This document shows positions 26,621 through 36,945 of a stretch of 62,737 nucleotides of DNA, one piece after another. Positions within the stretch are counted from its first letter, which is position 1. Each line of letters begins with the position of its first letter. The DNA comes from Deltaproteobacteria bacterium (GTDB lineage: Bacteria > Desulfobacterota > Syntrophia > Syntrophales > UBA2210). Under the pieces are notes generated by a model that was given only the letters and a program-made list of their open reading frames with translations, had not been told where the DNA came from and did no database searches. The stretch is from assembly GCA_016933215.1 (NCBI GenBank), contig JAFGBH010000056.1:1-62737 (forward strand). Direction: 5' to 3'. Position numbers and translations under genes: made by a program.

Positions 26621-26697
26621 CGGGGCGTAGCGCAGCCTGGTAGCGCGCATGCTTTGGGAGCATGATGTCGCAGGTTCAAATCCTGCCGCCCCGACCA
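26621..26697 (+). tRNA. tRNA-Pro (TGG)
   Basis: CGGGGCG/CGCCCCG acceptor stem, D-loop CCTGGTA, anticodon arm CATGC-TT TGG GA-GCATG, GGTTCAAATCC T-loop, encoded CCA. Confidence 0.97.
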
Positions 26698-26699
26698 AA
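26671..26699 (+). repeat. att site copy within the tRNA-Pro 3' end
   Basis: CAGGTTCAAATCCTGCCGCCCCGACCAAA, identical to 33319-33347. Confidence 0.9.
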
Positions 26700-26711
26700 T
26701 AATATTTGTAA

Positions 26712-27881
26712 TTACAGTTGGTTAGCATTTTCAATATGCCCCAAATTCTTTACCACTTCTTTACCAGAAGCGTCTTTATAAATCTCTCGTAAATCATCAG
26801 CTTCAATTCTGAAATATCGCTCAAATGCCTTGTTGGTATGATGACCTGATGCTTTTTTAATTTCCTCTGGTGATCTTCCCGCTTTTCTTAATGCTCGTGC
26901 TGAACTGTGACGAGTACCACCGTACAAGTCAACGCCATTAACGCCGATGTTTTTACACGCTTTTTTCCACCAATTTGACAGTACGTGCTGACCAAAAGGA
27001 GAGCCCGCTTTTCTACCTGAACCCTTTGTATGTCTGAGAAACCTGAGGTTTGGCAGACCCCGGGGGAACGATCTGAATATCTCTATATCTTCATCAATAA
27101 GAGGTACTGCTTTATATTTCTTTTCTTTCGGCTTCGGAAAGTAAAGATATCCGTTTCCAAGGTCAATATTACCTTCTTCAAGAGATATCAATTCTCCCGG
27201 CCTTATTGATATGTAGGTGGATAGCAGCTTTATTGCGAACCAGATTTTTGGATTATAATTAGCTGTAAGTTTCTTGACCTCGTTGAGTATGGCAATCTGT
27301 GTTTCCTTGTCGATAGTCTTTCTATATCCTATCTCAACGTCTGTGCTTGGGAATTCTGGAAAGTCCTGCATTGAAATGTATTTACATTTGCGGAGCCATT
27401 CCCAGAAGGTGTGTAATGCGTCAATATAGTTCTTCTGCGTCTTTGAGCTGAGTTTACTGAGAGAGTATTTAAAGTCTTCGAGTTCAGGATATCCGATATC
27501 CTTGATGTTTGTATCAGCAAAGAAAGCAGAAGCTTTTGAAGCATAATTCTTAAGATTGTTATAATTTTTGGGCTTTACCTCTTGTTTCTTACGCTCAATC
27601 CACTTCTCAATTAGTGTTGAGAATCCTAACGGCTTATTCTTTCGATAATCACGATCATCAAAGTTACCTTCATCGTACTTAAATCTTAACCCTTCAAGAA
27701 AACGTTTAGCATTATCATAATTGTTAAATCGCTGATGTACGCTTTTAAATCTTGCAGAAAATCTTGTTGCTACTATCTTGTTGTGATTTGGACATTTTAA
27801 CGACTTTTTCCCGTCGTCTTTAAACGTTGAACTACAGACAGGACACCTCTGATCTGAATAGATTCCTCCAATCATACACAT
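26712..27881 (-). CDS. Tyrosine recombinase/integrase
   Basis: IRPGEL (R), KPKEKK, RHSSAR (HxxR), SGHHT (H), FERYF (Y); likely start ATG 27881 after GGGGGTG. Confidence 0.92.
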
Positions 27882-27930
27882 TTCACCCCCTTTATTTTGG
27901 GAGCTATTATGTCCGAGAGATGAATTCAAA

Positions 27931-29262
27931 TCAAGGCTTCCTTTCGAGTGCGTCTTTTATCCTCTTGGCACCTTCACTTTCCATTAACGTTTCAGTGGGC
28001 AATCCCAATTTTATCGCTTTCTTTTCATACTCCTCTTTGAAATCTTTCTTATTGCTTAAATACATAGCTATATCGTTCATGGCGTTTCGTAATGCGCTTT
28101 CTTGGTTTTTCTTCTGCGATATAACCGCATAACCTATAAGCAAGCCTGCCATTCTCGATACATAAGGGTCTAATGTCCGATGTGCTGTTTTCCTATATTC
28201 CCTCTTGATGTTTGATATTTCTCCAAATCGATTCTTGCAATTGATTACGTCCTGCCAAAATTCAAGGTATGTTCTCCGTTCAGTTTTTTCGTTGTCGAGA
28301 TGCCGTAAAGAAAACCATTCTGTCGTTAAATATTCCCAAATGTCAGCTATTGTTTTTTCAAGGTCATCCAGTGTTTCTATCTTGTATTGTTTCAATATAG
28401 ATCGTCTTATCTGGTATTCGATGCGCCATACATCCTCAGAATTATCGGTATTCCAAATTTCCAGCCATCGTTTCTCGGTGTCCTTCTTCGTTATCTCCAG
28501 ACCCTTGTTATATATCCTCAACTTAATGTCCGCTTTACCAACGCCGAAGTATATTGACTCAAGGATATCACCATTTTTATATTCAAGGGTCTTAATGCTC
28601 CTACCTACCTTATGCTTTTTCAGATAATCAGCGTCCAATCCTCCCGTAATTCTATAGTCTGCGCAGATATCCACTCTACTAGGCTTTATAAGCGTTATTC
28701 TTCCACCTAATACTGTTATGTCTTGCCATATCGCTATTACTGCGCTGTGATACCCTATGCTCCATAGTGCCTCTGAATTTATAGACACAAATACATTCGG
28801 GCTGTTGTTCTTCGGTTCTTCTGATATTGCTATAAAGATATGATATTCAGGAAATTGTAGATGATAACGGTAATTCGGCTGTTTCCCACCTGGTAGAAAC
28901 AGATATTTCCTCGTCTCAGTTAAATTAACTAATATGCCGTCAGTACCAAACGCCAGCTCCTTTCTGGCTTGAAAGATATCCTTCTTATCTTCCCAATCAT
29001 TGTTCCAGTTAACGTATACACCTAAATCTAGTGTATCTATACCGCATGATAAAAGCTCCCATTCTGTCCGCTGTGGGTTTTGCACATGGCGTGTTACAGA
29101 CAACGCCATGTTTTCATCCATACCATTTGATTGATTGTTTTGTGTCTGTCCGACCGCCTGCCCACCGCAGCCGTCCGGACAGACCACACCCATCTCTACC
29201 GATGATTTTGGATTATCAGTGTGGTCATAGATAGTATCTCTATGTGGTGCTCTTTCCTCCAT
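27931..29262 (-). CDS. Rep_trans-family rolling-circle replication initiator/relaxase
   Basis: GIDTLDL, SRVDICAD, ESIYFG, KLRIYNKGLE (catalytic Tyr, like RepC/RepD RIYNK), VWRIEYQIRR; exact start uncertain. Confidence 0.78.
   Translation of the reverse strand: MEERAPHRDTIYDHTDNPKSSVEMGVVCPDGCGGQAVGQTQNNQSNGMDENMALSVTRHVQNPQRTEWELLSCGIDTLDLGVYVNWNNDWEDKKDIFQARKELAFGTDGILVNLTETRKYLFLPGGKQPNYRYHLQFPEYHIFIAISEEPKNNSPNVFVSINSEALWSIGYHSAVIAIWQDITVLGGRITLIKPSRVDICADYRITGGLDADYLKKHKVGRSIKTLEYKNGDILESIYFGVGKADIKLRIYNKGLEITKKDTEKRWLEIWNTDNSEDVWRIEYQIRRSILKQYKIETLDDLEKTIADIWEYLTTEWFSLRHLDNEKTERRTYLEFWQDVINCKNRFGEISNIKREYRKTAHRTLDPYVSRMAGLLIGYAVISQKKNQESALRNAMNDIAMYLSNKKDFKEEYEKKAIKLGLPTETLMESEGAKRIKDALERKP
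29085..29110 (-). other. Candidate double-strand origin / nick-site hairpin
   Basis: CATGGCGT-TGTCTGTAAC-ACGCCATG: perfect 8-bp stem, 10-nt loop ending in TAAC, within the 5' part of rep. Confidence 0.45.
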
Positions 29263-29311
29263 GCGTAAAATTATGACAGAGAAAAGGAAAGAGAACCGGA
29301 CAGGAATTTAA

Positions 29312-30304
29312 TTATTTTTTGTCCGGTTTTGGAATGGTTTGCCAGAAGGTTTTTGCTCTTTGGATTGCTTTCTCGAATGACTCATCATTTATAATGTGGT
29401 CTGGATCATATGCTTCATCACCCTTATCACGGGCAATGACATTAAATAAGTCATCTATCTCTTTTGCAGTAAGTTTCTGTCCCATTACAATTGATATAAT
29501 TGAAATCAGACCTGCAAGGTTATATTTAATCTTCTTCAGGTCTAGTTTCATTTTTGGTGTTTTACCTGTAGCCGTTTTGAAGCAATACCTCATGCTTTGT
29601 TTTTTTGATACCTTTGCCTGATGATGTATTTCCATTATCTTCGGGTCATGAATTATTGAATCATCTAATCTGTATAATTTTTCAATGGCATCTTCATCAC
29701 CATGTCTGGCCTTCCTCAGAATATTAACGGGATAATCCCCGTAGAAGAGCCAGCAGGGAAGAAATACCCTGAGAAAATATATCATCTCAGGTTTTGCTTG
29801 AATCGCCCTGACTCTTTTCTTTGTATCGTTATCAGGTTCATTCTCTTTTTTACTATCGTTTCCTATAACATTGATGGCAATGAATTCCTGAATAACACCA
29901 GTATAGGTAATCGCTGTATTTATGATTTCCTGTTGCTTTTCCTGAGTCAATTTTTGAATTTCCCGATTAATTTCTTCGGGCGTCATTCCTTTGATTTGGT
30001 TGAATCCTCCCATCATAAGTTCGTAGATGTCTAGTGCCTTTGCAGTCGTATCGTTAAGGCTTCTGAATTCATCGGTGACGCCGTAATAGACTCTCCTGTG
30101 ATTGCGATAAAGGGATAGCCATTCTTGTATAGAGGGAAGCTTAGTTTCGCCTTCAATCCGTTTTCCCACTTTAAACATCTCAAGCAATTCAAGGCAGTAC
30201 TCAACACTTCCGGCAATAACAAGAGATGCTATGGCCAGCAAGAGACTCTTGTTATTTGCCCACTCATTGAAGTGCTTCATACCTGGAATATTGATTGTTG
30301 TCAT
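29312..30304 (-). CDS. Hypothetical protein (element-borne orphan)
   Basis: 330-aa open frame with GAGGGGGAG RBS; no family recognised. Confidence 0.75.
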   Translation of the reverse strand: MTTINIPGMKHFNEWANNKSLLLAIASLVIAGSVEYCLELLEMFKVGKRIEGETKLPSIQEWLSLYRNHRRVYYGVTDEFRSLNDTTAKALDIYELMMGGFNQIKGMTPEEINREIQKLTQEKQQEIINTAITYTGVIQEFIAINVIGNDSKKENEPDNDTKKRVRAIQAKPEMIYFLRVFLPCWLFYGDYPVNILRKARHGDEDAIEKLYRLDDSIIHDPKIMEIHHQAKVSKKQSMRYCFKTATGKTPKMKLDLKKIKYNLAGLISIISIVMGQKLTAKEIDDLFNVIARDKGDEAYDPDHIINDESFEKAIQRAKTFWQTIPKPDKK

Positions 30305-30346
30305 TTCTCCCCCTCATGTCGCCGGCAGTATGTAGCACGAGCGCCA

Positions 30347-30395
30347 TTTCTGTCAAGGGTTCCCTTCGGCTCACTTCGTTCGGCCTTGACAGAAA
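30347..30395. repeat. 12-bp inverted repeat upstream of the element's core genes
   Basis: TTTCTGTCAAGG (30347-30358) ... CCTTGACAGAAA (30384-30395), 25-nt spacer. Confidence 0.75.
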
Positions 30396-30718
30396 CGTCT
30401 TTTCTCGTGCTTAAAAGGAATTAGGCGACGGTGAGAGGGTATGGCTCATAGACTCTGATAAAAGGGTTATTTTCGCCATTTCGACAAGTTGAGGCGTATG
30501 TTTTGAACGGAGCTTAACCGTTTCGCCTGCTAATCAATGAATCAATCAAAGAGAAAAAAACGTCGGTTATGAGTTGAAATCTTCAATATGAAAAATTGGT
30601 ATTGAGCTATTGTTAAGTGGCACGTGTCATTAAATTACGAACACGATGGCTGAATAATTGACTTTACAAAACATGTATTGAAGGGACTGCTGCCAAGCTC
30701 TGATACTTCAACGCTTTT

Positions 30719-32158
30719 CTACTTCCAAGATCTTAAGAGAAAGAATAAAAGCAACCCGAATATCTCAAGTCGTCCTAGAAGCATATCTCCCGTAAGAATC
30801 CACTTTCCGATCTCTGGAATATTACCGAAGTTGCTCACTGAACCAACCAGACCAAATCCCGGCCCTACATTACCCATCGTAGCTGCCGAGGCAGAGAATG
30901 CCGTCATAATATCAATTCCCATAAAACATATGAGGAGGCTCGATACAAACACGATGGCGACATAGAGTATTATATAGAGAAGACTTGCCTCAAGAACGTC
31001 ATCGTCGATTGCGATGCCCTCTATTTTCGCTTTCACGACGGCGTGGGTATGTTGGACTTTTGTGATCCTCTTTTTTATTGCATGCCAGAGCAGGACAGCC
31101 CTGTCAACTTTGATTCCGCCCGACGTGGAACCGCTGCAGGCGCACAGTAAAGTAAAAAAGACAATCAGCATCTGGGAGAATGGCGGCCAGATATTACTGT
31201 CAGTTGAGGCAAAACCGGTCGACGTTCCAATGGATATAACCTGAAAAGCGGCATGTCTTATTGTCTCTCCCCAGCCTCCGTATACTGCCCCATGGATATT
31301 GACAGCCACTAATACAACACCGGCAAAGAGCATAATCAGGTAGGTCCGAAGAACCGTTGATCTGAGCAAGACCTTTAGTTTGCCTGATAAGGAGAGAAAC
31401 AGGAGGCCGAAATTGATTCCCGAGAGAATCATGAAGATCATGATAATGGTTTCAATCTGCGGGCTTCTATAGTAAGCGACACTGAGATTTTTCGGCGAGA
31501 ATCCTCCGGTGGCGATGGTGGTAAAGGAATGGTTTATCGCATCAAATAGACTCATCCCGCAGGCCACGAGAGCGATGGTCTCCGCAACTGTCAAGCCCAC
31601 ATAGACCGTCATGATGATCCGCAAAGTCTCCCGTGTCTGATACCTGAAATTGGCAGCGGCAAGCGGCGATATTTCAGATCTATAGAGCATCATACCGATT
31701 TTTCCCATTGAGGGTAGAACCGAGAGGGCAAATATGATAATGCCTACGCCTCCGATCCATTGGGTGGCGGAACGCCAGAACAGAAGCCCGTCGGGAAGCG
31801 CCTCGATGTTCGTCAGAATGGACGACCCCGTCGTAGTAAATCCCGATACACTTTCAAACCATGCGTTCGTAAGGGTAAATTCACCACCCCACAGAACATA
31901 GGGAATCATTCCGATAAGACAGGAGAGAAGCCAGCTCGAAACGACGATGGTAAATCCTTCCTTGATCGATATTTCTTCTGTCGGCGGAATGAAGATGAAC
32001 GGGAATGCCCCGAACAATGCCGCTATAAGGCATGTATAGATAAGAGGGAAAAGGGCAGAGTCCCCTTTCAAAAATGAAATGATCGCAGATATGAAGAGGA
32101 ATGCAGCATTTATCAGCAAGATGATTCCCACATAACGGAGAACGATGTGGTATCTCAT
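30719..32158 (-). CDS. trkH: Trk-system potassium uptake membrane protein
   Basis: FESVSGFTTTGSS, SFTTIATGGFS, STGFAS, GSTSGGIK, GNVGPG, MLLGRLE P-loop motifs; likely ATG 32158. Confidence 0.92.
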   Translation of the reverse strand: MRYHIVLRYVGIILLINAAFLFISAIISFLKGDSALFPLIYTCLIAALFGAFPFIFIPPTEEISIKEGFTIVVSSWLLSCLIGMIPYVLWGGEFTLTNAWFESVSGFTTTGSSILTNIEALPDGLLFWRSATQWIGGVGIIIFALSVLPSMGKIGMMLYRSEISPLAAANFRYQTRETLRIIMTVYVGLTVAETIALVACGMSLFDAINHSFTTIATGGFSPKNLSVAYYRSPQIETIIMIFMILSGINFGLLFLSLSGKLKVLLRSTVLRTYLIMLFAGVVLVAVNIHGAVYGGWGETIRHAAFQVISIGTSTGFASTDSNIWPPFSQMLIVFFTLLCACSGSTSGGIKVDRAVLLWHAIKKRITKVQHTHAVVKAKIEGIAIDDDVLEASLLYIILYVAIVFVSSLLICFMGIDIMTAFSASAATMGNVGPGFGLVGSVSNFGNIPEIGKWILTGDMLLGRLEIFGLLLFFLLRSWK

Positions 32159-32168
32159 GAATCCTGCC

Positions 32169-32918
32169 TCACCTTTCCGACTTTGCAATCAGGCTTTCAA
32201 CCGAGGAAACCAGTTTCGAGATTTCATCCTCGGTATCGACTTTCACCTTAAGCGGAATTCCCGAATCGATGTATCTCTGAATACCGTCGGTGACTTTTAT
32301 TATAGGAGTAACGACAAAAAGGTTAATCAGGAAACTGAAGATAATTGCAAAAACAAAGGCAGATATAATAGCAATAATACCCGGCATTGTCGCCCGGTGG
32401 GCTCTGCTTTCCATATCGGATGCTGTCCGGTACATCATCTGATCATTCAGCGACATGAGATTTTGGACGGAGAGCTTTGCCATGAGAAAAGATGAGTGAA
32501 CCTCACTGAAATACCAACTAAGGTTTCCTTCCCGAGCAGTTTCAACGATTGGTTTGCTCCACAGGGCCTTATAATTGTCGTATGCCCTTGATACGGCATC
32601 GACGTACTCCTGTTCGCCCGGAATTGTCACGTTATTTCGGGCGGTTTCATAGGCTTTTCTGAATGAAGCATCAGCGGACTGTAAAATTGCCCGGCCCTCT
32701 TTCTGTTTGCCCAATAGCAAAAGCAGGATAGCGCTGTCTTCCCGTTCGAGGGCCTCGACCATCAACTTTGCAGCATTGATGCTCTTGTAGTTGTCATCGA
32801 GAATTCTCTGAACGGAGATGCCGATATTGCTCAATTCGTAAATAGACCATGCGCCAGCAACCAGCAACATGATGGCCATTATCAGGAATCCTGAAAATAT
32901 CTTTGCCCGTATTCCCAT
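32169..32918 (-). CDS. Membrane protein with extracytoplasmic four-helix sensor domain and HAMP, no output domain
   Basis: Two TM helices flanking an NYKSI..A..M.EALER four-helix region; C-terminal PI.KVT.GI...DEISKL HAMP then stop. Confidence 0.7.
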   Translation of the reverse strand: MGIRAKIFSGFLIMAIMLLVAGAWSIYELSNIGISVQRILDDNYKSINAAKLMVEALEREDSAILLLLLGKQKEGRAILQSADASFRKAYETARNNVTIPGEQEYVDAVSRAYDNYKALWSKPIVETAREGNLSWYFSEVHSSFLMAKLSVQNLMSLNDQMMYRTASDMESRAHRATMPGIIAIISAFVFAIIFSFLINLFVVTPIIKVTDGIQRYIDSGIPLKVKVDTEDEISKLVSSVESLIAKSER

Positions 32919-33318
32919 GGTCTTCTCCTTATCGGGTCTAAGAGTAAAAAAATCCAGATATGCACTTTATACTACACAAAGCCGGTTTTAAATATATTTT
33001 ATGAGCCCTGTGGGGACGGCAATGCATTTTAGAACAGCGATATAGTAACATTAATCCAAGTTTTTTTCATTCTGTTAATGATTACCAGATGAAGCGTGTA
33101 TGTTTTCTGAAGAGGTCAAGATATTGACTTCAGTCAACAATGATTACCACAAGAAAGCTGGTATCATTTGTTCAATTTCAAATCTGATTACTTCAGGAAG
33201 GAAGAAATATCTCCTTCTCATATTTTATTATTCAACAGATTTGCTACGGATTACTTTCTCATTCTTTACCAATTCTTTACCAGACCCCTCGGAAACTCAA
33301 TACTGGTAAGGATGTTGA

Positions 33319-33347
33319 CAGGTTCAAATCCTGCCGCCCCGACCAAA
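33319..33347 (+). repeat. Distal att site (duplicated tRNA-Pro 3' end)
   Basis: Identical to 26671-26699; the flanking bases differ on both sides. Confidence 0.9.
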
Positions 33348-33525
33348 AATATCAAATCATAGTAACCGCCATCGTTCGATTTACCAACGTACAATGAGAA
33401 AGAATACTCACTGGAAACGAGTGAAACCTTTCACACTATTCCACCCCCATTTTCATTGACCGGAAAAAATCTTTTCCCTATAATCTTCCATAATAAACGG
33501 AAATCTTTATAACATCTGAGAGACT

Positions 33526-36500
33526 ATGCTGGTTCGGGAAACCACAGACGAAATAAAGTATCAGGTAGAGTGGTCCACACAGGACTTTCACGGGACGGGA
33601 ACATTTACCTGGCCCGATGGCAGTTGCTATGAAGGTGATTTTCACGATGGACACCTTCATGGTTATGGGGTCTTCACCTGGGCCGACGGGAGCAATTACA
33701 CAGGTCAATGGCAAAACGATTTGCCCCACGGAAGGGGTGTGTTTACTCTGCCTGATGGAAGTCAAACTGCCGGTGAATGGAACCAGGGAAGGGCAAGCAG
33801 ACAAGATGAACTGAAAAAGGCGGAAGAATCGAGAAAACGAGCAGAGGAAGCAGCGAGAATAGTTAGCGGAGAGGAATTAAAACTTACCGCTGAAGAGGAA
33901 GCGCTGAGGAAAAAGGCAGAAGAGGCCAGGCAAAGGACTGATGAAGCTGCCGCAAGGCTGGCTGAAGAAGAGGCGAAGCTCAAGGCTGAAGAGGAAGCGC
34001 TGAGTAAAAGGGCGGAAGAGGCCAGACAAAAAACCAAGGAAGCTGCCAGGAGACTTGCTGAAGAGGAAGCCAGACTCAAAGAAGAAGAGGAAACACGAAG
34101 AAAGGCAGAAGAGGCAAGAAAAGAGGCAGAGGAAGCGGCAAAAAGATTCGCCGAGGAAGAAGCGAGGCTCAAAGCTGAAGCTGAAGTGCTGAGAAAAAAA
34201 GCAGAAGAGGCGAAACAACGGACCGAAGAGGCGGCCAGAAGACTGGCGGAAGAAGAAACCAGACTCCAGGCCGAAGAGGAGGCGAGAGTAAAGGCTGAAG
34301 AAGCAAGACAAAAAGCCGAAGAAATGGCACGGAGACTTGCCGGAGAGGAAGCCAGAATAAGATCCGAAGAAGCAGAATTGACGAAAAAGGCCGAAGAAGC
34401 AAGGCAAAAGACCGAAGAAACGGCAAGAAGACTTGCTCAAGAGGAAGCCAAACTCAGAGCTGAGGAGGAAGCGAGCAGAAGAGCTGAAGAGGAATTGAGA
34501 ATAAGGGCCGAAAAGGCCATGAGAGAGGCAGAAGAAATATCATTTCGAATGGTCGAGGAAGAGGCCAGGCTGAAAGCTGATGAGGATGAACTGAGGAGAA
34601 GGGTTGAAGAATCAAGGGCAATTGCCTTTGAGACTGCCCGACGGCTTGCCGAGGAAGAAGCGAAACTGAGAGCCGAAGAGGAAGCGAGCAAGAAAGCCGA
34701 GGAGGAACTGAAGAAACGGGAGGCAGACGCCAAACAGCGGGCAAAGGAAGCGGCCATGAGAATGGCCGAGATGGAAGCCAGAATAAGATCCGAAGAAGCA
34801 GAATTGACAAAAAAGGCCGAAGAAGCAAGACAAAAGACTGAGGAAACTACCAGGAGGCTTGCCGAGGAAGAAGCCAGGTTGAGGGCCGAAGAGGAGGAGA
34901 GCAGAAGAGCGGAAGAAGAATTGAGAATAAAGGCCGAAGAGGTCAGGAAAAGAACCAGTGAAGCAAACCAGAGACTGGCCGAAGAAGAGGCCAGGCTCAA
35001 AGCTGACGAGGAAGAGTGGAAAATAAAGGCAGATGAAGGCAAACTTGAGGCTAAAAAAGAAGAGTTGAGAGCCAAAGCCAGTGCTGCACGACAGAAGATC
35101 GAAGCAGAAGCCAGGAAACTTGCCGAAGAGGAAAACAGGTTGAGGGCTGAGGAAGAAGCACTCAAGATAAAAGCTGTTAAGGCCAAACAAAATATTGAGG
35201 AAGCGGCGAGGAGATTGGCTGAAGAAGAAGCGAATCTCCGGATTGAAGAGGAGACAAGTAAAAAGGCTGAAGAAGAATTAAGAATAAAGGCCGAGGAGGC
35301 CAGACGGCGAGCGGAGGAAACAGCGGCAAGACTGTTAGAAGAGGAAGCCCGGCTCGCGGCTGAAGAGGAAGCATTAAGGAATAAATCAGAAGAGACGAGA
35401 CAGAAGGCAGAGGAGACTGCCCGCAGAATTGCAAGAGAAGAAGCACGGCTTCGCGCTGATGAAATGGCGCTTAAAAATGCAGAAGAAGAGGTGAGGATAA
35501 AGGCTCAAGAAACACGGCTAAAGACGGAAGAAGCAACAAAGAGACTCTCCGAAGAGGAAAACAGGCTAAAGGCTGAGACGGAAGAGTTACAGAAGAAGGT
35601 AGATGAAGCGAGGAAGAAAACCTATGATGCTGCCCAAAAACTTGCCGAAAAAGAGGCAAGGTTCAGAGCCGAAGAGGAGGCAAGCAAGAAAGCGGAAGAG
35701 GAGCTGCGGGTAAAGGCCGATGAAGCCAGACAGCGGGCCGAAGAAGCGGCACAAAGACTGGCAGAGGAGATCGAAAGAGCGAAGGAAGACGAAGAAAAGA
35801 CGCAGGAGCTCCTTGAAAAGGAGCGGTTTACCAGGATATCAGAAGTTGAAGGGGCCAAACGAATTGCCGAAAGAGAGGCCATGCTGAGGGCCGAAGAGGA
35901 GGCAAGCAAGAAAGCGGAAGAGGAGCTGCGGGCAAAGGCCGAAGAAGCCAGACAGCGGGCCGAAGAGGCTGCAAGGAGAATTGCCGAAGAGGAGACAAAA
36001 CTTCGAGCTGAAGAGGAGGCAAGCAAGAAAGCGGAAGAGGACCTTCGCAGAAAGGTCGAAGAAGCCAGACGGAGGGCAGAAGATGCGGCCCGGAGACTGG
36101 ATGAGGAAGAAGCCAGACTGAAATTCGAAGAAGAGGAGTTGCGTAAAAAGGCGGAAGACGCCCGACGGAGAACTGAAGAAACGGCAGAAAAGGTGGCCGC
36201 AGAAGAAGCGAGATTAAAAGCCGAAGAGGAAAAGCTTCGAAAGAAGGCGGAAGAGTTGGCAAGAATTTCTCTTGAAGAAGATGGAGCCGCGATTACCTCG
36301 GGGCGTATATCGAAGACCTTTCCTGACGGCAGCACATATGTCGGCGAAATAGTGAGGGGAATGCCACAGGGTCAGGGAGTTATGAACTATGCCGAAGGAA
36401 GCAAGTACGTCGGAGATTGGAAAGAGGGTAAACAGGATGGACACGGTATTCTTACCCTCTCCGATGGAACGATCTACATATGCCAGTGGAAGGAGGGTAA

Positions 36501-36945
36501 AAAGAACGGGAACGGAACGGCAACCATGCCGAATGGGAAAAAGTATATTGGCGATTGGAAAAACGACCGTTATGACGGCCAGGGAACAGAAACCTTTCCG
36601 GACGGCATGAAATACAATGGTCAGTTTAGGGATGGAAAGTTTCACGGCAGAGGGATTCTGGTCCTGCCTGACGGAAGACGATATACAGGTGAGTTCAAGG
36701 ATAGTGCCTTTCATGGAAAGGGAATTCTGGTATTTTCAACGGGGGACCGGTATGAGGGCGATTTTAAGAACAACCGGTATCATGGCAAGGGAAAAATGAT
36801 TATGGCAGACGGCAGATATTACTCGGGCGAACTTGAAAATGGCCTGCCTCACGGAATGGGGACAATGGTATTTACCAGCGGAAAAGAGAATGTTGGTCAA
36901 TTCGTAGAAGGAAGGTTTGTCGGAGAGAGAGAGGTGAGCAGATGA
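33526..36945 (+). CDS. MORN-repeat protein with a very long central E/K/R/A-rich helical repeat region
   Basis: About 3 MORN repeats (YxGxWxxGxxHGxG) at the N-terminus and about 8 at the C-terminus; residues ~92-915 are AEEARQKAEEAARRLAEEEARLKAEEE-type repeats. Confidence 0.88.
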   Translation: MLVRETTDEIKYQVEWSTQDFHGTGTFTWPDGSCYEGDFHDGHLHGYGVFTWADGSNYTGQWQNDLPHGRGVFTLPDGSQTAGEWNQGRASRQDELKKAEESRKRAEEAARIVSGEELKLTAEEEALRKKAEEARQRTDEAAARLAEEEAKLKAEEEALSKRAEEARQKTKEAARRLAEEEARLKEEEETRRKAEEARKEAEEAAKRFAEEEARLKAEAEVLRKKAEEAKQRTEEAARRLAEEETRLQAEEEARVKAEEARQKAEEMARRLAGEEARIRSEEAELTKKAEEARQKTEETARRLAQEEAKLRAEEEASRRAEEELRIRAEKAMREAEEISFRMVEEEARLKADEDELRRRVEESRAIAFETARRLAEEEAKLRAEEEASKKAEEELKKREADAKQRAKEAAMRMAEMEARIRSEEAELTKKAEEARQKTEETTRRLAEEEARLRAEEEESRRAEEELRIKAEEVRKRTSEANQRLAEEEARLKADEEEWKIKADEGKLEAKKEELRAKASAARQKIEAEARKLAEEENRLRAEEEALKIKAVKAKQNIEEAARRLAEEEANLRIEEETSKKAEEELRIKAEEARRRAEETAARLLEEEARLAAEEEALRNKSEETRQKAEETARRIAREEARLRADEMALKNAEEEVRIKAQETRLKTEEATKRLSEEENRLKAETEELQKKVDEARKKTYDAAQKLAEKEARFRAEEEASKKAEEELRVKADEARQRAEEAAQRLAEEIERAKEDEEKTQELLEKERFTRISEVEGAKRIAEREAMLRAEEEASKKAEEELRAKAEEARQRAEEAARRIAEEETKLRAEEEASKKAEEDLRRKVEEARRRAEDAARRLDEEEARLKFEEEELRKKAEDARRRTEETAEKVAAEEARLKAEEEKLRKKAEELARISLEEDGAAITSGRISKTFPDGSTYVGEIVRGMPQGQGVMNYAEGSKYVGDWKEGKQDGHGILTLSDGTIYICQWKEGKKNGNGTATMPNGKKYIGDWKNDRYDGQGTETFPDGMKYNGQFRDGKFHGRGILVLPDGRRYTGEFKDSAFHGKGILVFSTGDRYEGDFKNNRYHGKGKMIMADGRYYSGELENGLPHGMGTMVFTSGKENVGQFVEGRFVGEREVSR

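Follow-up and report, generated by a model that had tools for sequence, protein, structure and literature searches.

A compact tRNA-Pro-integrated element from a Syntrophales bacterium, with a predicted Rep_trans-superfamily initiator, a covarying candidate origin hairpin and potassium transport cargo

The stretch of DNA analyzed here (hereafter the window) is one whole 62.7-kb contig (JAFGBH010000056.1; 62,737 nucleotides) of a metagenome-assembled genome (MAG) from the Syntrophales (GCA_016933215.1; 2.69 Mb in 102 contigs, 97.8% complete), and it contains a compact element inserted at the 3' end of a tRNA-Pro gene. Two exact copies of a 29-bp attachment site (att) enclose five genes, all on the minus strand, which encode a tyrosine integrase (int), a replication initiator (rep), a protein of 330 amino acids (aa) that we call orf330, a potassium uptake protein (trkH) and a membrane sensor with 4HB_MCP and HAMP domains (hamp). 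It is an integrative element with the hamp-trkH pair as cargo and without transfer genes, and we consider it likely that its rolling-circle Rep nicks a hairpin in its own gene after excision. The features at the locus are as follows.

26621..26697, plus strand: tRNA-Pro(tgg), the integration target, intact after integration (ARAGORN; Rfam RF00005, 69.1 bits)
26671..26699, no strand assigned: attL core, 29 bp comprising the tRNA 3' end plus 2 nt; exact repeat of family D9
26712..27929, minus strand: tyrosine integrase, 405 aa (PF00589, Phage_int_SAM_5, phrog_1)
26746..26766, plus strand: two copies of TTCTTTACCA at 11-nt spacing, inside the int 3' end and 46 nt from the attL core; repeat family D13
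27931..29262, minus strand: Rep, predicted rolling-circle initiator of the Rep_trans superfamily by fold, motifs and profile; motif LRIYNKG
29084..29111, minus strand: conserved hairpin at the rep 5' end with an 8-bp stem and a 12-nt loop, reading ACATGGCG-TTGTCTGTAACA-CGCCATGT on the rep-sense strand from 29111 to 29084
29312..30304, minus strand: orf330, 330 aa, all-alpha; first gene of the orf330-rep-int operon
30309..30439, minus strand: three-tier palindrome upstream of orf330, with a promoter-like site and a 23-nt terminal loop
30719..32188, minus strand: TrkH-family K+ uptake protein, 489 aa (PF02386, E = 1e-60; NF008020, E = 1e-96)
32169..32918, minus strand: membrane 4HB_MCP-HAMP sensor, 249 aa, without an output domain (PF12729, E = 1e-9)
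32919..33203, minus strand: upstream regulatory region carried along with hamp-trkH, from nucleotide homology with a chromosomal locus of a relative (G008)
33262..33282, plus strand: two more copies of TTCTTTACCA at 11-nt spacing, 36 nt from attR; repeat family D13
33319..33347, no strand assigned: attR core, identical to the 29 bp of attL

The tRNA-Pro gene is the single tRNA that ARAGORN recognizes in the window and the sole match in an Rfam search of the element. The attL core extends 2 nt past its end; 13 nt farther on is the int stop codon. A search for the 29-bp sequence allowing up to 3 mismatches returned only the two copies located by the repeat finder, with none in 100 shuffles, which confirms the exact att duplication claimed in an earlier note made from the window's sequence alone. 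Counting one att copy, the element measures 6,648 bp. The 10-mer TTCTTTACCA occurs exactly four times between 26000 and 34000, two copies close to each end, and these are candidate arm-type integrase binding sites; several relatives likewise have short direct repeats common to both arms. The presence of such pairs at both ends indicates that the two ends belong to one recombination unit. We also considered a composite of a new element and an older islet, and rejected it because the arm repeats sit at both outer ends and no third, degenerate att copy exists between the repeats, even at 9 mismatches in 29. The att repeats, the integrase and the arm repeats thus bear out the single tRNA-Pro-integrated element that the note had described.

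The integrase scores 33.3 bits against PF00589, above the cut-off of 27.1, and matches phrog_1 at E = 4e-27. The motifs IRPGE, RHSSAR and ERY can be read in its translation, along with an N-terminal CxxC...CxxH segment, and its start overlaps the rep stop. It therefore has what is expected of a tRNA-targeting island: a domain above cut-off, the catalytic residues, repeats of the tRNA 3' end and an int gene adjoining the tRNA. The GC content of int, rep and orf330 (0.36-0.41) is set off from that of the flanks and trkH-hamp (0.44-0.50). Positions 28912-32142 are matched at 100% identity by a Logan contig (run SRR13394436), and this independent contig indicates that the rep-orf330-trkH junction is no artefact of MAG assembly. 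The co-oriented integrase, RIYNK-bearing initiator and orphan open reading frame (ORF) of the note, with their potassium transport cargo, were all found as it had put them, and the region between the repeats is likewise free of type IV secretion system (T4SS), coupling-protein, capsid, Zot and terminase genes.

Placement of Rep in the Rep_trans superfamily rests on its predicted fold and on profile comparisons because its direct score against PF02486, 21.1 bits, falls under the gathering score of 29.6. An AF2 model of the protein (mean pLDDT 84.9) matches RepSTK1 (4cij) in Foldseek with E = 2e-12 and probability 1.0, followed by RepDE (4cwc/4cwe) at E ~2e-10 and then by TATA-binding proteins, whose saddle-like fold is known to be akin to that of Rep_trans proteins. 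A profile built from the Rep alignment finds staphylococcal RepDE (4cwc) in the PDB at E = 1e-4, pairing RvDLcaDf, RiYdK and WRvEfq with RLDLAFDF, RIYNK and WRVEIE of RepDE. Residues D198, D202, Y251, K253, R280 and E282 are invariant in the 46 aligned Rep sequences, and Y251, in LRIYNK, is the predicted catalytic tyrosine. At E ≤ 0.01, 37 of these 46 homologues match PF02486 (best 2e-8). The Rep_trans-type initiator of the earlier note thus stands by fold, motifs and homologues, and not by the direct Pfam score of the window's own protein.

The model divides Rep into a core (residues 64-330) and a C-terminal helical domain (334-440). Residues 1-63 are unconserved and modelled as disordered (pLDDT <50), and conservation begins at M52 (29109), so that the real protein probably has ~392 aa. 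In a collection of 5.8 billion proteins, 161 homologues were found at E ≤ 1e-3, several of which, in Syntrophus, Geobacter and Citrifermentans, bear the name 'replication initiation factor'. More distant relatives (22-31% identity) are the sole gene on 1.7-kb plasmids of Mesotoga and Synechococcus, and others are annotated Rep proteins on Bacillus plasmids or, in one case, lie on the 6.5-kb Cellulophaga phage Omtje; their occurrence on small plasmids and a phage supports a role in replication.

The hairpin at the 5' end of rep includes the ATG of the conserved Met52. A homologous hairpin occurs in 74 of 79 family loci, though the Rep proteins are merely 31-50% identical. Covariation was assessed on 63 distinct sequences against 500 column shuffles. 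In the stem 97.4% of cells are paired, all 8 pairs have changed on both sides somewhere in the family and 63 cells are compensatory. None of the 500 shuffles came up to the observed percentage paired, the number of compensatory cells, the further pair types or the covariation score, and 2 of 500 came up to the count of pairs with two-sided changes; when the partner is slid by 1-3 columns, pairing falls to 20-52%. The usual stem, GCATGGCG/CGCCATGC, is replaced elsewhere by GCAGGGGG/CCCCCTGC, GCATGATG/CATCATGC or GGACTACCCG/CGGGTAGTCC, while the loop core YCTGTAACA stays constant. Such exchange of stems around a fixed loop points to selection on a nucleic-acid structure and not on the encoded peptide. 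The site nicked by Rep_trans and MOB_T proteins is CT'AA, held in a loop of 12 nt on a GC-rich stem of 7 bp (PMC9371924). The geometry of the present hairpin agrees with this, and by analogy the hairpin, a candidate double-strand origin or origin of transfer (oriT), is most likely the nick site of Rep.

The first gene of the operon, orf330, has no match in Pfam, PHROGs, NCBIfam or a PDB profile search. Its AF2 model (pLDDT 80.4) is entirely helical, and Foldseek finds no such fold in the PDB (best E = 1.2). It belongs to a large family, with 962 cluster representatives at E ≤ 1e-3 in an exhaustive profile search, and it adjoins rep in 37 of 78 loci. Upstream, positions 30309-30467 are 85-86% identical at the nucleotide level to relatives whose genes are only 66-72% identical. 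Folded as single-stranded DNA (ssDNA), 30309-30439 has a minimum free energy of -32.7 kcal/mol, where shuffles have -18.95 ± 2.96 (z = -4.65). The terminal loop of 23 nt is invariant; of the changes in the arms, some are compensatory. A promoter scan places TTGACA-18-CATACT (30356-30327) in the inner 3' arm, followed by the orf330 ribosome-binding site. From these sequence properties the palindrome may act as promoter and operator of the operon, as a single-strand origin, or in both ways. It was rejected as a feature of the whole family, because it is confined to nine distinct Syntrophales loci.

The remaining two genes of the element have a different history. The hamp gene and the trkH start overlap by 20 nt, the GC content of trkH is host-like (0.47-0.49), and the HAMP region of the sensor matches histidine kinases and methyl-accepting chemotaxis proteins. 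In relatives hamp is always found paired with this trkH. Four other genera of the family carry the pair at 60-85% aa identity (76-85% for the trkH orthologues) on the chromosome, away from tRNA-Pro and between unrelated genes. In G008 its neighbours are a glycine-betaine ABC transporter and a PEMT gene; G021 has a histidine kinase and a CitMHS transporter in their place, and in G003, too, the pair lies in another chromosomal context. Nucleotide homology with the G008 locus (L021) runs from the trkH stop at 30723 to 33032 and resumes at 33129-33203, which fixes the limits of the captured module. The tRNA-Arg element L081, a family member of 8.6 kb, has both genes within its own 60-nt repeats (aa identity 77% for trkH and 69% for hamp); there they adjoin orf330 but face the other way. 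The sister species has only the other trkH, 36% identical, and lacks the pair at tRNA-Pro. The chromosomal copies elsewhere, the copy in the tRNA-Arg element and the lack of the pair in the sister identify hamp-trkH as cargo, to judge from these comparisons captured from a Syntrophales chromosome. A native origin of the pair at this site was rejected on the same grounds, and the case that would have made the element smaller than the earlier note proposed, trkH and hamp at this position in relatives without the integrase, was not encountered. No trkA lies beside the translationally coupled trkH-hamp pair, which is kept as a unit in at least 6 genomes; TrkH may be gated by the HAMP sensor in place of the usual TrkA ring.

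Whole-genome searches of relatives, together with a scan in which each GTDB species was represented by one genome, show that the element is one of many. Rep relatives are encoded in at least 149 species genomes, from the Syntrophales (including Smithella), Geobacter, Geomonas, Pelotalea, Geomobilimonas and the Desulfuromonadales to Syntrophobacter, Syntrophorhabdaceae, Planctomycetota and Nitrospiraceae. When the ORFs of 81 loci were clustered, five groups only recurred beside Rep: the integrase (44 loci), orf330 relatives (37), a 499-aa protein that we call F4 (22) and two groups of small excisionase-like (Xis) proteins with an HTH_17 domain. The gene order is constant, namely cargo, (orf330), rep, (F4), (xis), int, tRNA, and the tRNA targets are of 13 types (Pro, Gly, Arg, Met, Leu, Glu, Phe, Val, Asn, SeC, Ser, Ala and Gln). 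Repeats of the tRNA 3' end, 19-60 nt long, were found on the far side in 19 further relatives and delimit units of 3.9 to ~13 kb. No conjugation, coupling-protein, capsid or morphogenesis genes recur among the family loci. For Syntrophales, Geobacter relatives and Planctomycetota, a literature search brought up no account of elements of this kind, which agrees with the earlier note's remark that they are little described in this lineage, although they are by no means rare. The family is large and apparently undescribed, and its hosts are anaerobic bacteria of several phyla.

The same three-gene core at tRNA-Pro, which the note had proposed to look for in other genomes, is indeed there in relatives, with aa identities of 51-58% for the integrase, 46-50% for Rep and 48-51% for orf330. 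In another genus (L009) the core sits at a tRNA-Pro downstream of the same relA-amidase-rph-rdgB genes, and elsewhere (L011/L034) a ~6.2-kb unit between tRNA-Pro-derived repeats carries three different cargo ORFs. Three further genera (L029, L030 and L031; genomes G021, G010 and G017) have integrase genes of the same type, or fragments of them, after the rdgB-downstream tRNA-Pro, which marks it as a recurrent landing site. In the sister species the tRNA-Pro is followed by a 2.4-kb islet without int or rep. This islet retains 124 nt left over from the non-coding region of the element, and its att copy is mismatched at one position. No clean empty site was found in relatives, the sister having this decayed islet and the more distant genera losing the synteny of the right flank.

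Two neighbouring features may be recorded here. In the sister (L025, G001:C10; 7732-12997), two copies of a ~109-bp sequence, which the window has only once (33380-33488), enclose a 5-kb block right beside the att site. The block has genes for a glycyl-radical enzyme of 991 aa and for a 4Fe-4S protein, and it looks like an insertion, or a deletion by repeat recombination. In the right flank of the window, 33526-36945 codes for a protein of 1139 aa that has MORN repeats at either end and a long repeat region rich in E, K, R and A; it is conserved in the sister species.

Evidence for recent movement comes from sequence comparison within a cultured strain, Geomobilimonas luticola JCM 17780 (G061). 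An identical 5.48-kb element with int, rep and two other ORFs, assembled as one collapsed contig bounded by a 23-nt att core, occurs there in two junction contexts. At one tRNA-Gly it adjoins the tRNA itself, and at a second tRNA-Gly another element comes in between. Of the junction contigs at its far end, one leads into a chromosomal flank and the other into a third, related element. This shows recent mobility of a relative and is indirect evidence that the family is active. Several related elements stand in tandem at the two tRNA-Gly genes of this strain (L041, L122-L128). The 5,480-bp contig, at 462x coverage, was also considered as a circular episome; this was rejected, since its 23-nt terminal repeat is the att core, the junction contigs reveal two integrated copies in tandem arrays, and the assembly has no attP junction contig.

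On the reading that we favor, the tyrosine integrase inserted the element into the 3' end of tRNA-Pro, where the backbone forms a single operon, orf330 to rep to int, read towards the tRNA and driven by the promoter-like site inside the 130-nt palindrome. After integrase-mediated excision, Rep would most likely nick the hairpin loop at the 5' end of its own gene, at GT/AA within TCTGTAACA by analogy with CT'AA, and would become covalently attached through Y251, thereby priming rolling-circle replication of the excised circle. The upstream palindrome would be a candidate site for lagging-strand initiation. Because the element has no transfer or packaging genes, any movement from cell to cell must depend on something outside it.

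Several observations weigh against this scheme. Beyond the sub-threshold Pfam score of Rep, the loop reads TCTGTAACA, with GTAA where the characterized Rep_trans and MOB_T sites have CTAA, and PLSDB holds no free plasmid of this Rep clade, its best match being 31% identical. The palindrome is restricted to nine loci and does not appear to contain the ssoA CS-6 motif. The element has no excisionase gene, while many relatives have an HTH_17 Xis. The decayed islet of the sister shows, from its sequence, that such elements die in place at this very site. Finally, since the hairpin holds the Met52 codon, it may have a second role in limiting rep translation, and it could also, or instead, control translation from the probable rep start codon that it overlaps.

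The last three points could be taken together to mean that the element is an immobile remnant, intact by chance or co-opted, which neither excises nor replicates and whose hairpin is an mRNA structure limiting rep translation. We find this very unlikely. The att copies of the window are identical at 29 of 29 positions, where that of the sister is mismatched; the three backbone ORFs are full-length and keep their invariant catalytic residues; and the GC content of the core is still foreign. The stem moreover covaries even where it contains no ATG, and nucleotides of the loop are conserved at synonymous positions.

An element that replicates after excision as we propose could still differ in how it travels. 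It may be an integrative mobilizable element (IME) in the strict sense, in which Rep is mainly a MOB_T-like relaxase, the hairpin is its oriT and the strand is passed to the T4SS of a co-resident conjugative element; replication would be compatible with this. MOB_T relaxases are relatives of Rep_trans proteins, nick the same type of hairpin and drive rolling-circle replication of excised elements (PMC9371924, PMC5704250), and there are streptococcal IMEs with an integrase and a Rep_trans protein only, some of them without a coupling protein (PMC5704250), which suits an element itself devoid of transfer genes. Rep, however, lacks the N-terminal helix-turn-helix (HTH) that MOB_T relaxases need, having no match to any HTH family and disorder in residues 1-63. 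Genes of the VirB4 (PF03135) and VirD4 (PF02534) families are absent from the 97.8%-complete MAG, which is weak evidence as MAGs can miss plasmids; no coupling protein recurs in 78 family loci, and the hosts belong to diderm phyla, where MOB_T systems have not been described. A strict IME is accordingly a possibility to which we give limited weight.

Packaging by a helper offers a second route, with the element as a satellite of a filamentous or other ssDNA phage whose Rep-made ssDNA circles would be encapsidated as RS1 is by CTX-phi. Weak matches to Phage_CRI (G2P) point this way (16.2 bits for the window protein, cut-off 21.7; 11 of 46 homologues at E ≤ 0.01), as do the distant Rep relative in phage Omtje and units of 4-13 kb, which are within the packaging range of ssDNA phages. 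The lack of a Zot-family gene (PF05707) in the genome and of recurrent coat-like or morphogenesis genes tells against it, as does IMG/VR, where just seven distant Rep matches (24-31% identity) were found among 2.9 million contigs, and no packaging signal was identified. We regard a phage satellite as highly improbable; no positive support emerged for the satellite-like character that the note had put forward, and the MAG has no candidate helper.

The family's own genes could in principle supply the route. F4 lies directly downstream of rep in 22 members (for example L075:5322-6821) and has no counterpart in the window's element; its alignment has a mean column identity of 69% and a P-loop-like PERGKSRTGKS, and it has no match in Pfam (including FtsK), PHROGs, NCBIfam or a PDB profile search. 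One F4-bearing member, a 7.1-kb contig with rep and F4 (L046, CAZDTW010000085.1), comes from a MAG labelled Methanobacterium, which probably reflects misbinning and not an archaeal host. The boldest interpretation, which we think quite unlikely, would make these elements of diderm anaerobes a separate class that spans phyla, minimal integrative replicons of the rolling-circle type that move between cells without conjugation or capsid genes, their single strand being exported or taken up by a route so far not connected with mobile elements, with orf330 and the P-loop protein F4 as transfer or regulatory machinery.

Returning to the replicating integrative element that we favor, one functional parallel lies in the Rep_trans plasmids: it would work like a pT181-type rolling-circle replicon with an acquired tRNA-specific integrase. 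Rep shares with RepC/RepD of pT181/pC221 and with RepSTK1 (4cij, 4cwc) the same predicted fold, the three catalytic motifs and the single tyrosine in RIYNK, and a hairpin with a GC-rich stem and a ~12-nt loop lies in the 5' part of rep, just as the nick hairpin of pT181 lies inside the 5' part of its rep gene. Unlike the plasmid proteins, this Rep, at ~390 aa, has an extra C-terminal helical domain and falls below the Pfam cut-off; the loop has GTAA and not CTAA, the element is integrated by a tyrosine integrase and is not a free plasmid, and its hosts are Desulfobacterota and Planctomycetota instead of Firmicutes.

Streptococci and actinomycetes are known to harbour small integrated elements in which an integrase is paired with a rolling-circle protein. 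IMESag-rpsI, ICESt3, ICEBs1 and Tn916 likewise have a tyrosine integrase and a Rep_trans-family protein, their nick hairpin is of the type that the candidate hairpin resembles, and the streptococcal IMEs depend on outside functions for transfer, as the present element would. In contrast to the streptococcal IMEs and integrative conjugative elements (ICEs), whose targets are ribosomal-protein genes or oriT, the present element has a tRNA target and lacks a Rep HTH, a coupling protein and a T4SS partner; the phyla differ, and the accessory proteins orf330 and F4 are unrelated. The actinomycete ICEs (AICEs) of the pSAM2 type are ~11 kb long, have a rep-(xis)-int operon at a tRNA att site (tRNA-Pro for pSAM2) and replicate by rolling circle after excision. 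The small size and the rep-xis-int layout abutting a tRNA are alike; however, the Tra protein of AICEs, which is FtsK/SpoIIIE-like and mediates double-stranded transfer, is absent from every ORF of the element, and the AICE Rep is of another family. RS1, the satellite of CTX-phi in Vibrio cholerae, is also integrated, with a rolling-circle Rep and no structural genes, but it uses host XerCD at dif and a Zot-bearing helper phage, where in the present case the integrase is the element's own, the att site lies in a tRNA gene and the genome has no inovirus genes. The element thus lacks the defining feature of each of these groups, be it a Pfam-level Rep_trans score, the HTH, coupling protein and T4SS of MOB_T systems, the Tra of AICEs or the Zot and coat proteins of inoviruses.

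The main new contributions are the definition of the family, through its fixed gene order, and the covarying candidate origin hairpin, which can be used as a search signature. Cultured carriers are at hand in Geobacter sp. AOG1, Pelotalea chapellei, Geomonas species and Geomobilimonas luticola with its two identical copies, so that excision, replication and transfer are testable at the bench, and the rep-hairpin module could become a replicon or integration tool for anaerobes that are hard to engineer. The elements also have a variable cargo region, which in this Syntrophales bacterium moves a gene pair for osmoadaptation.

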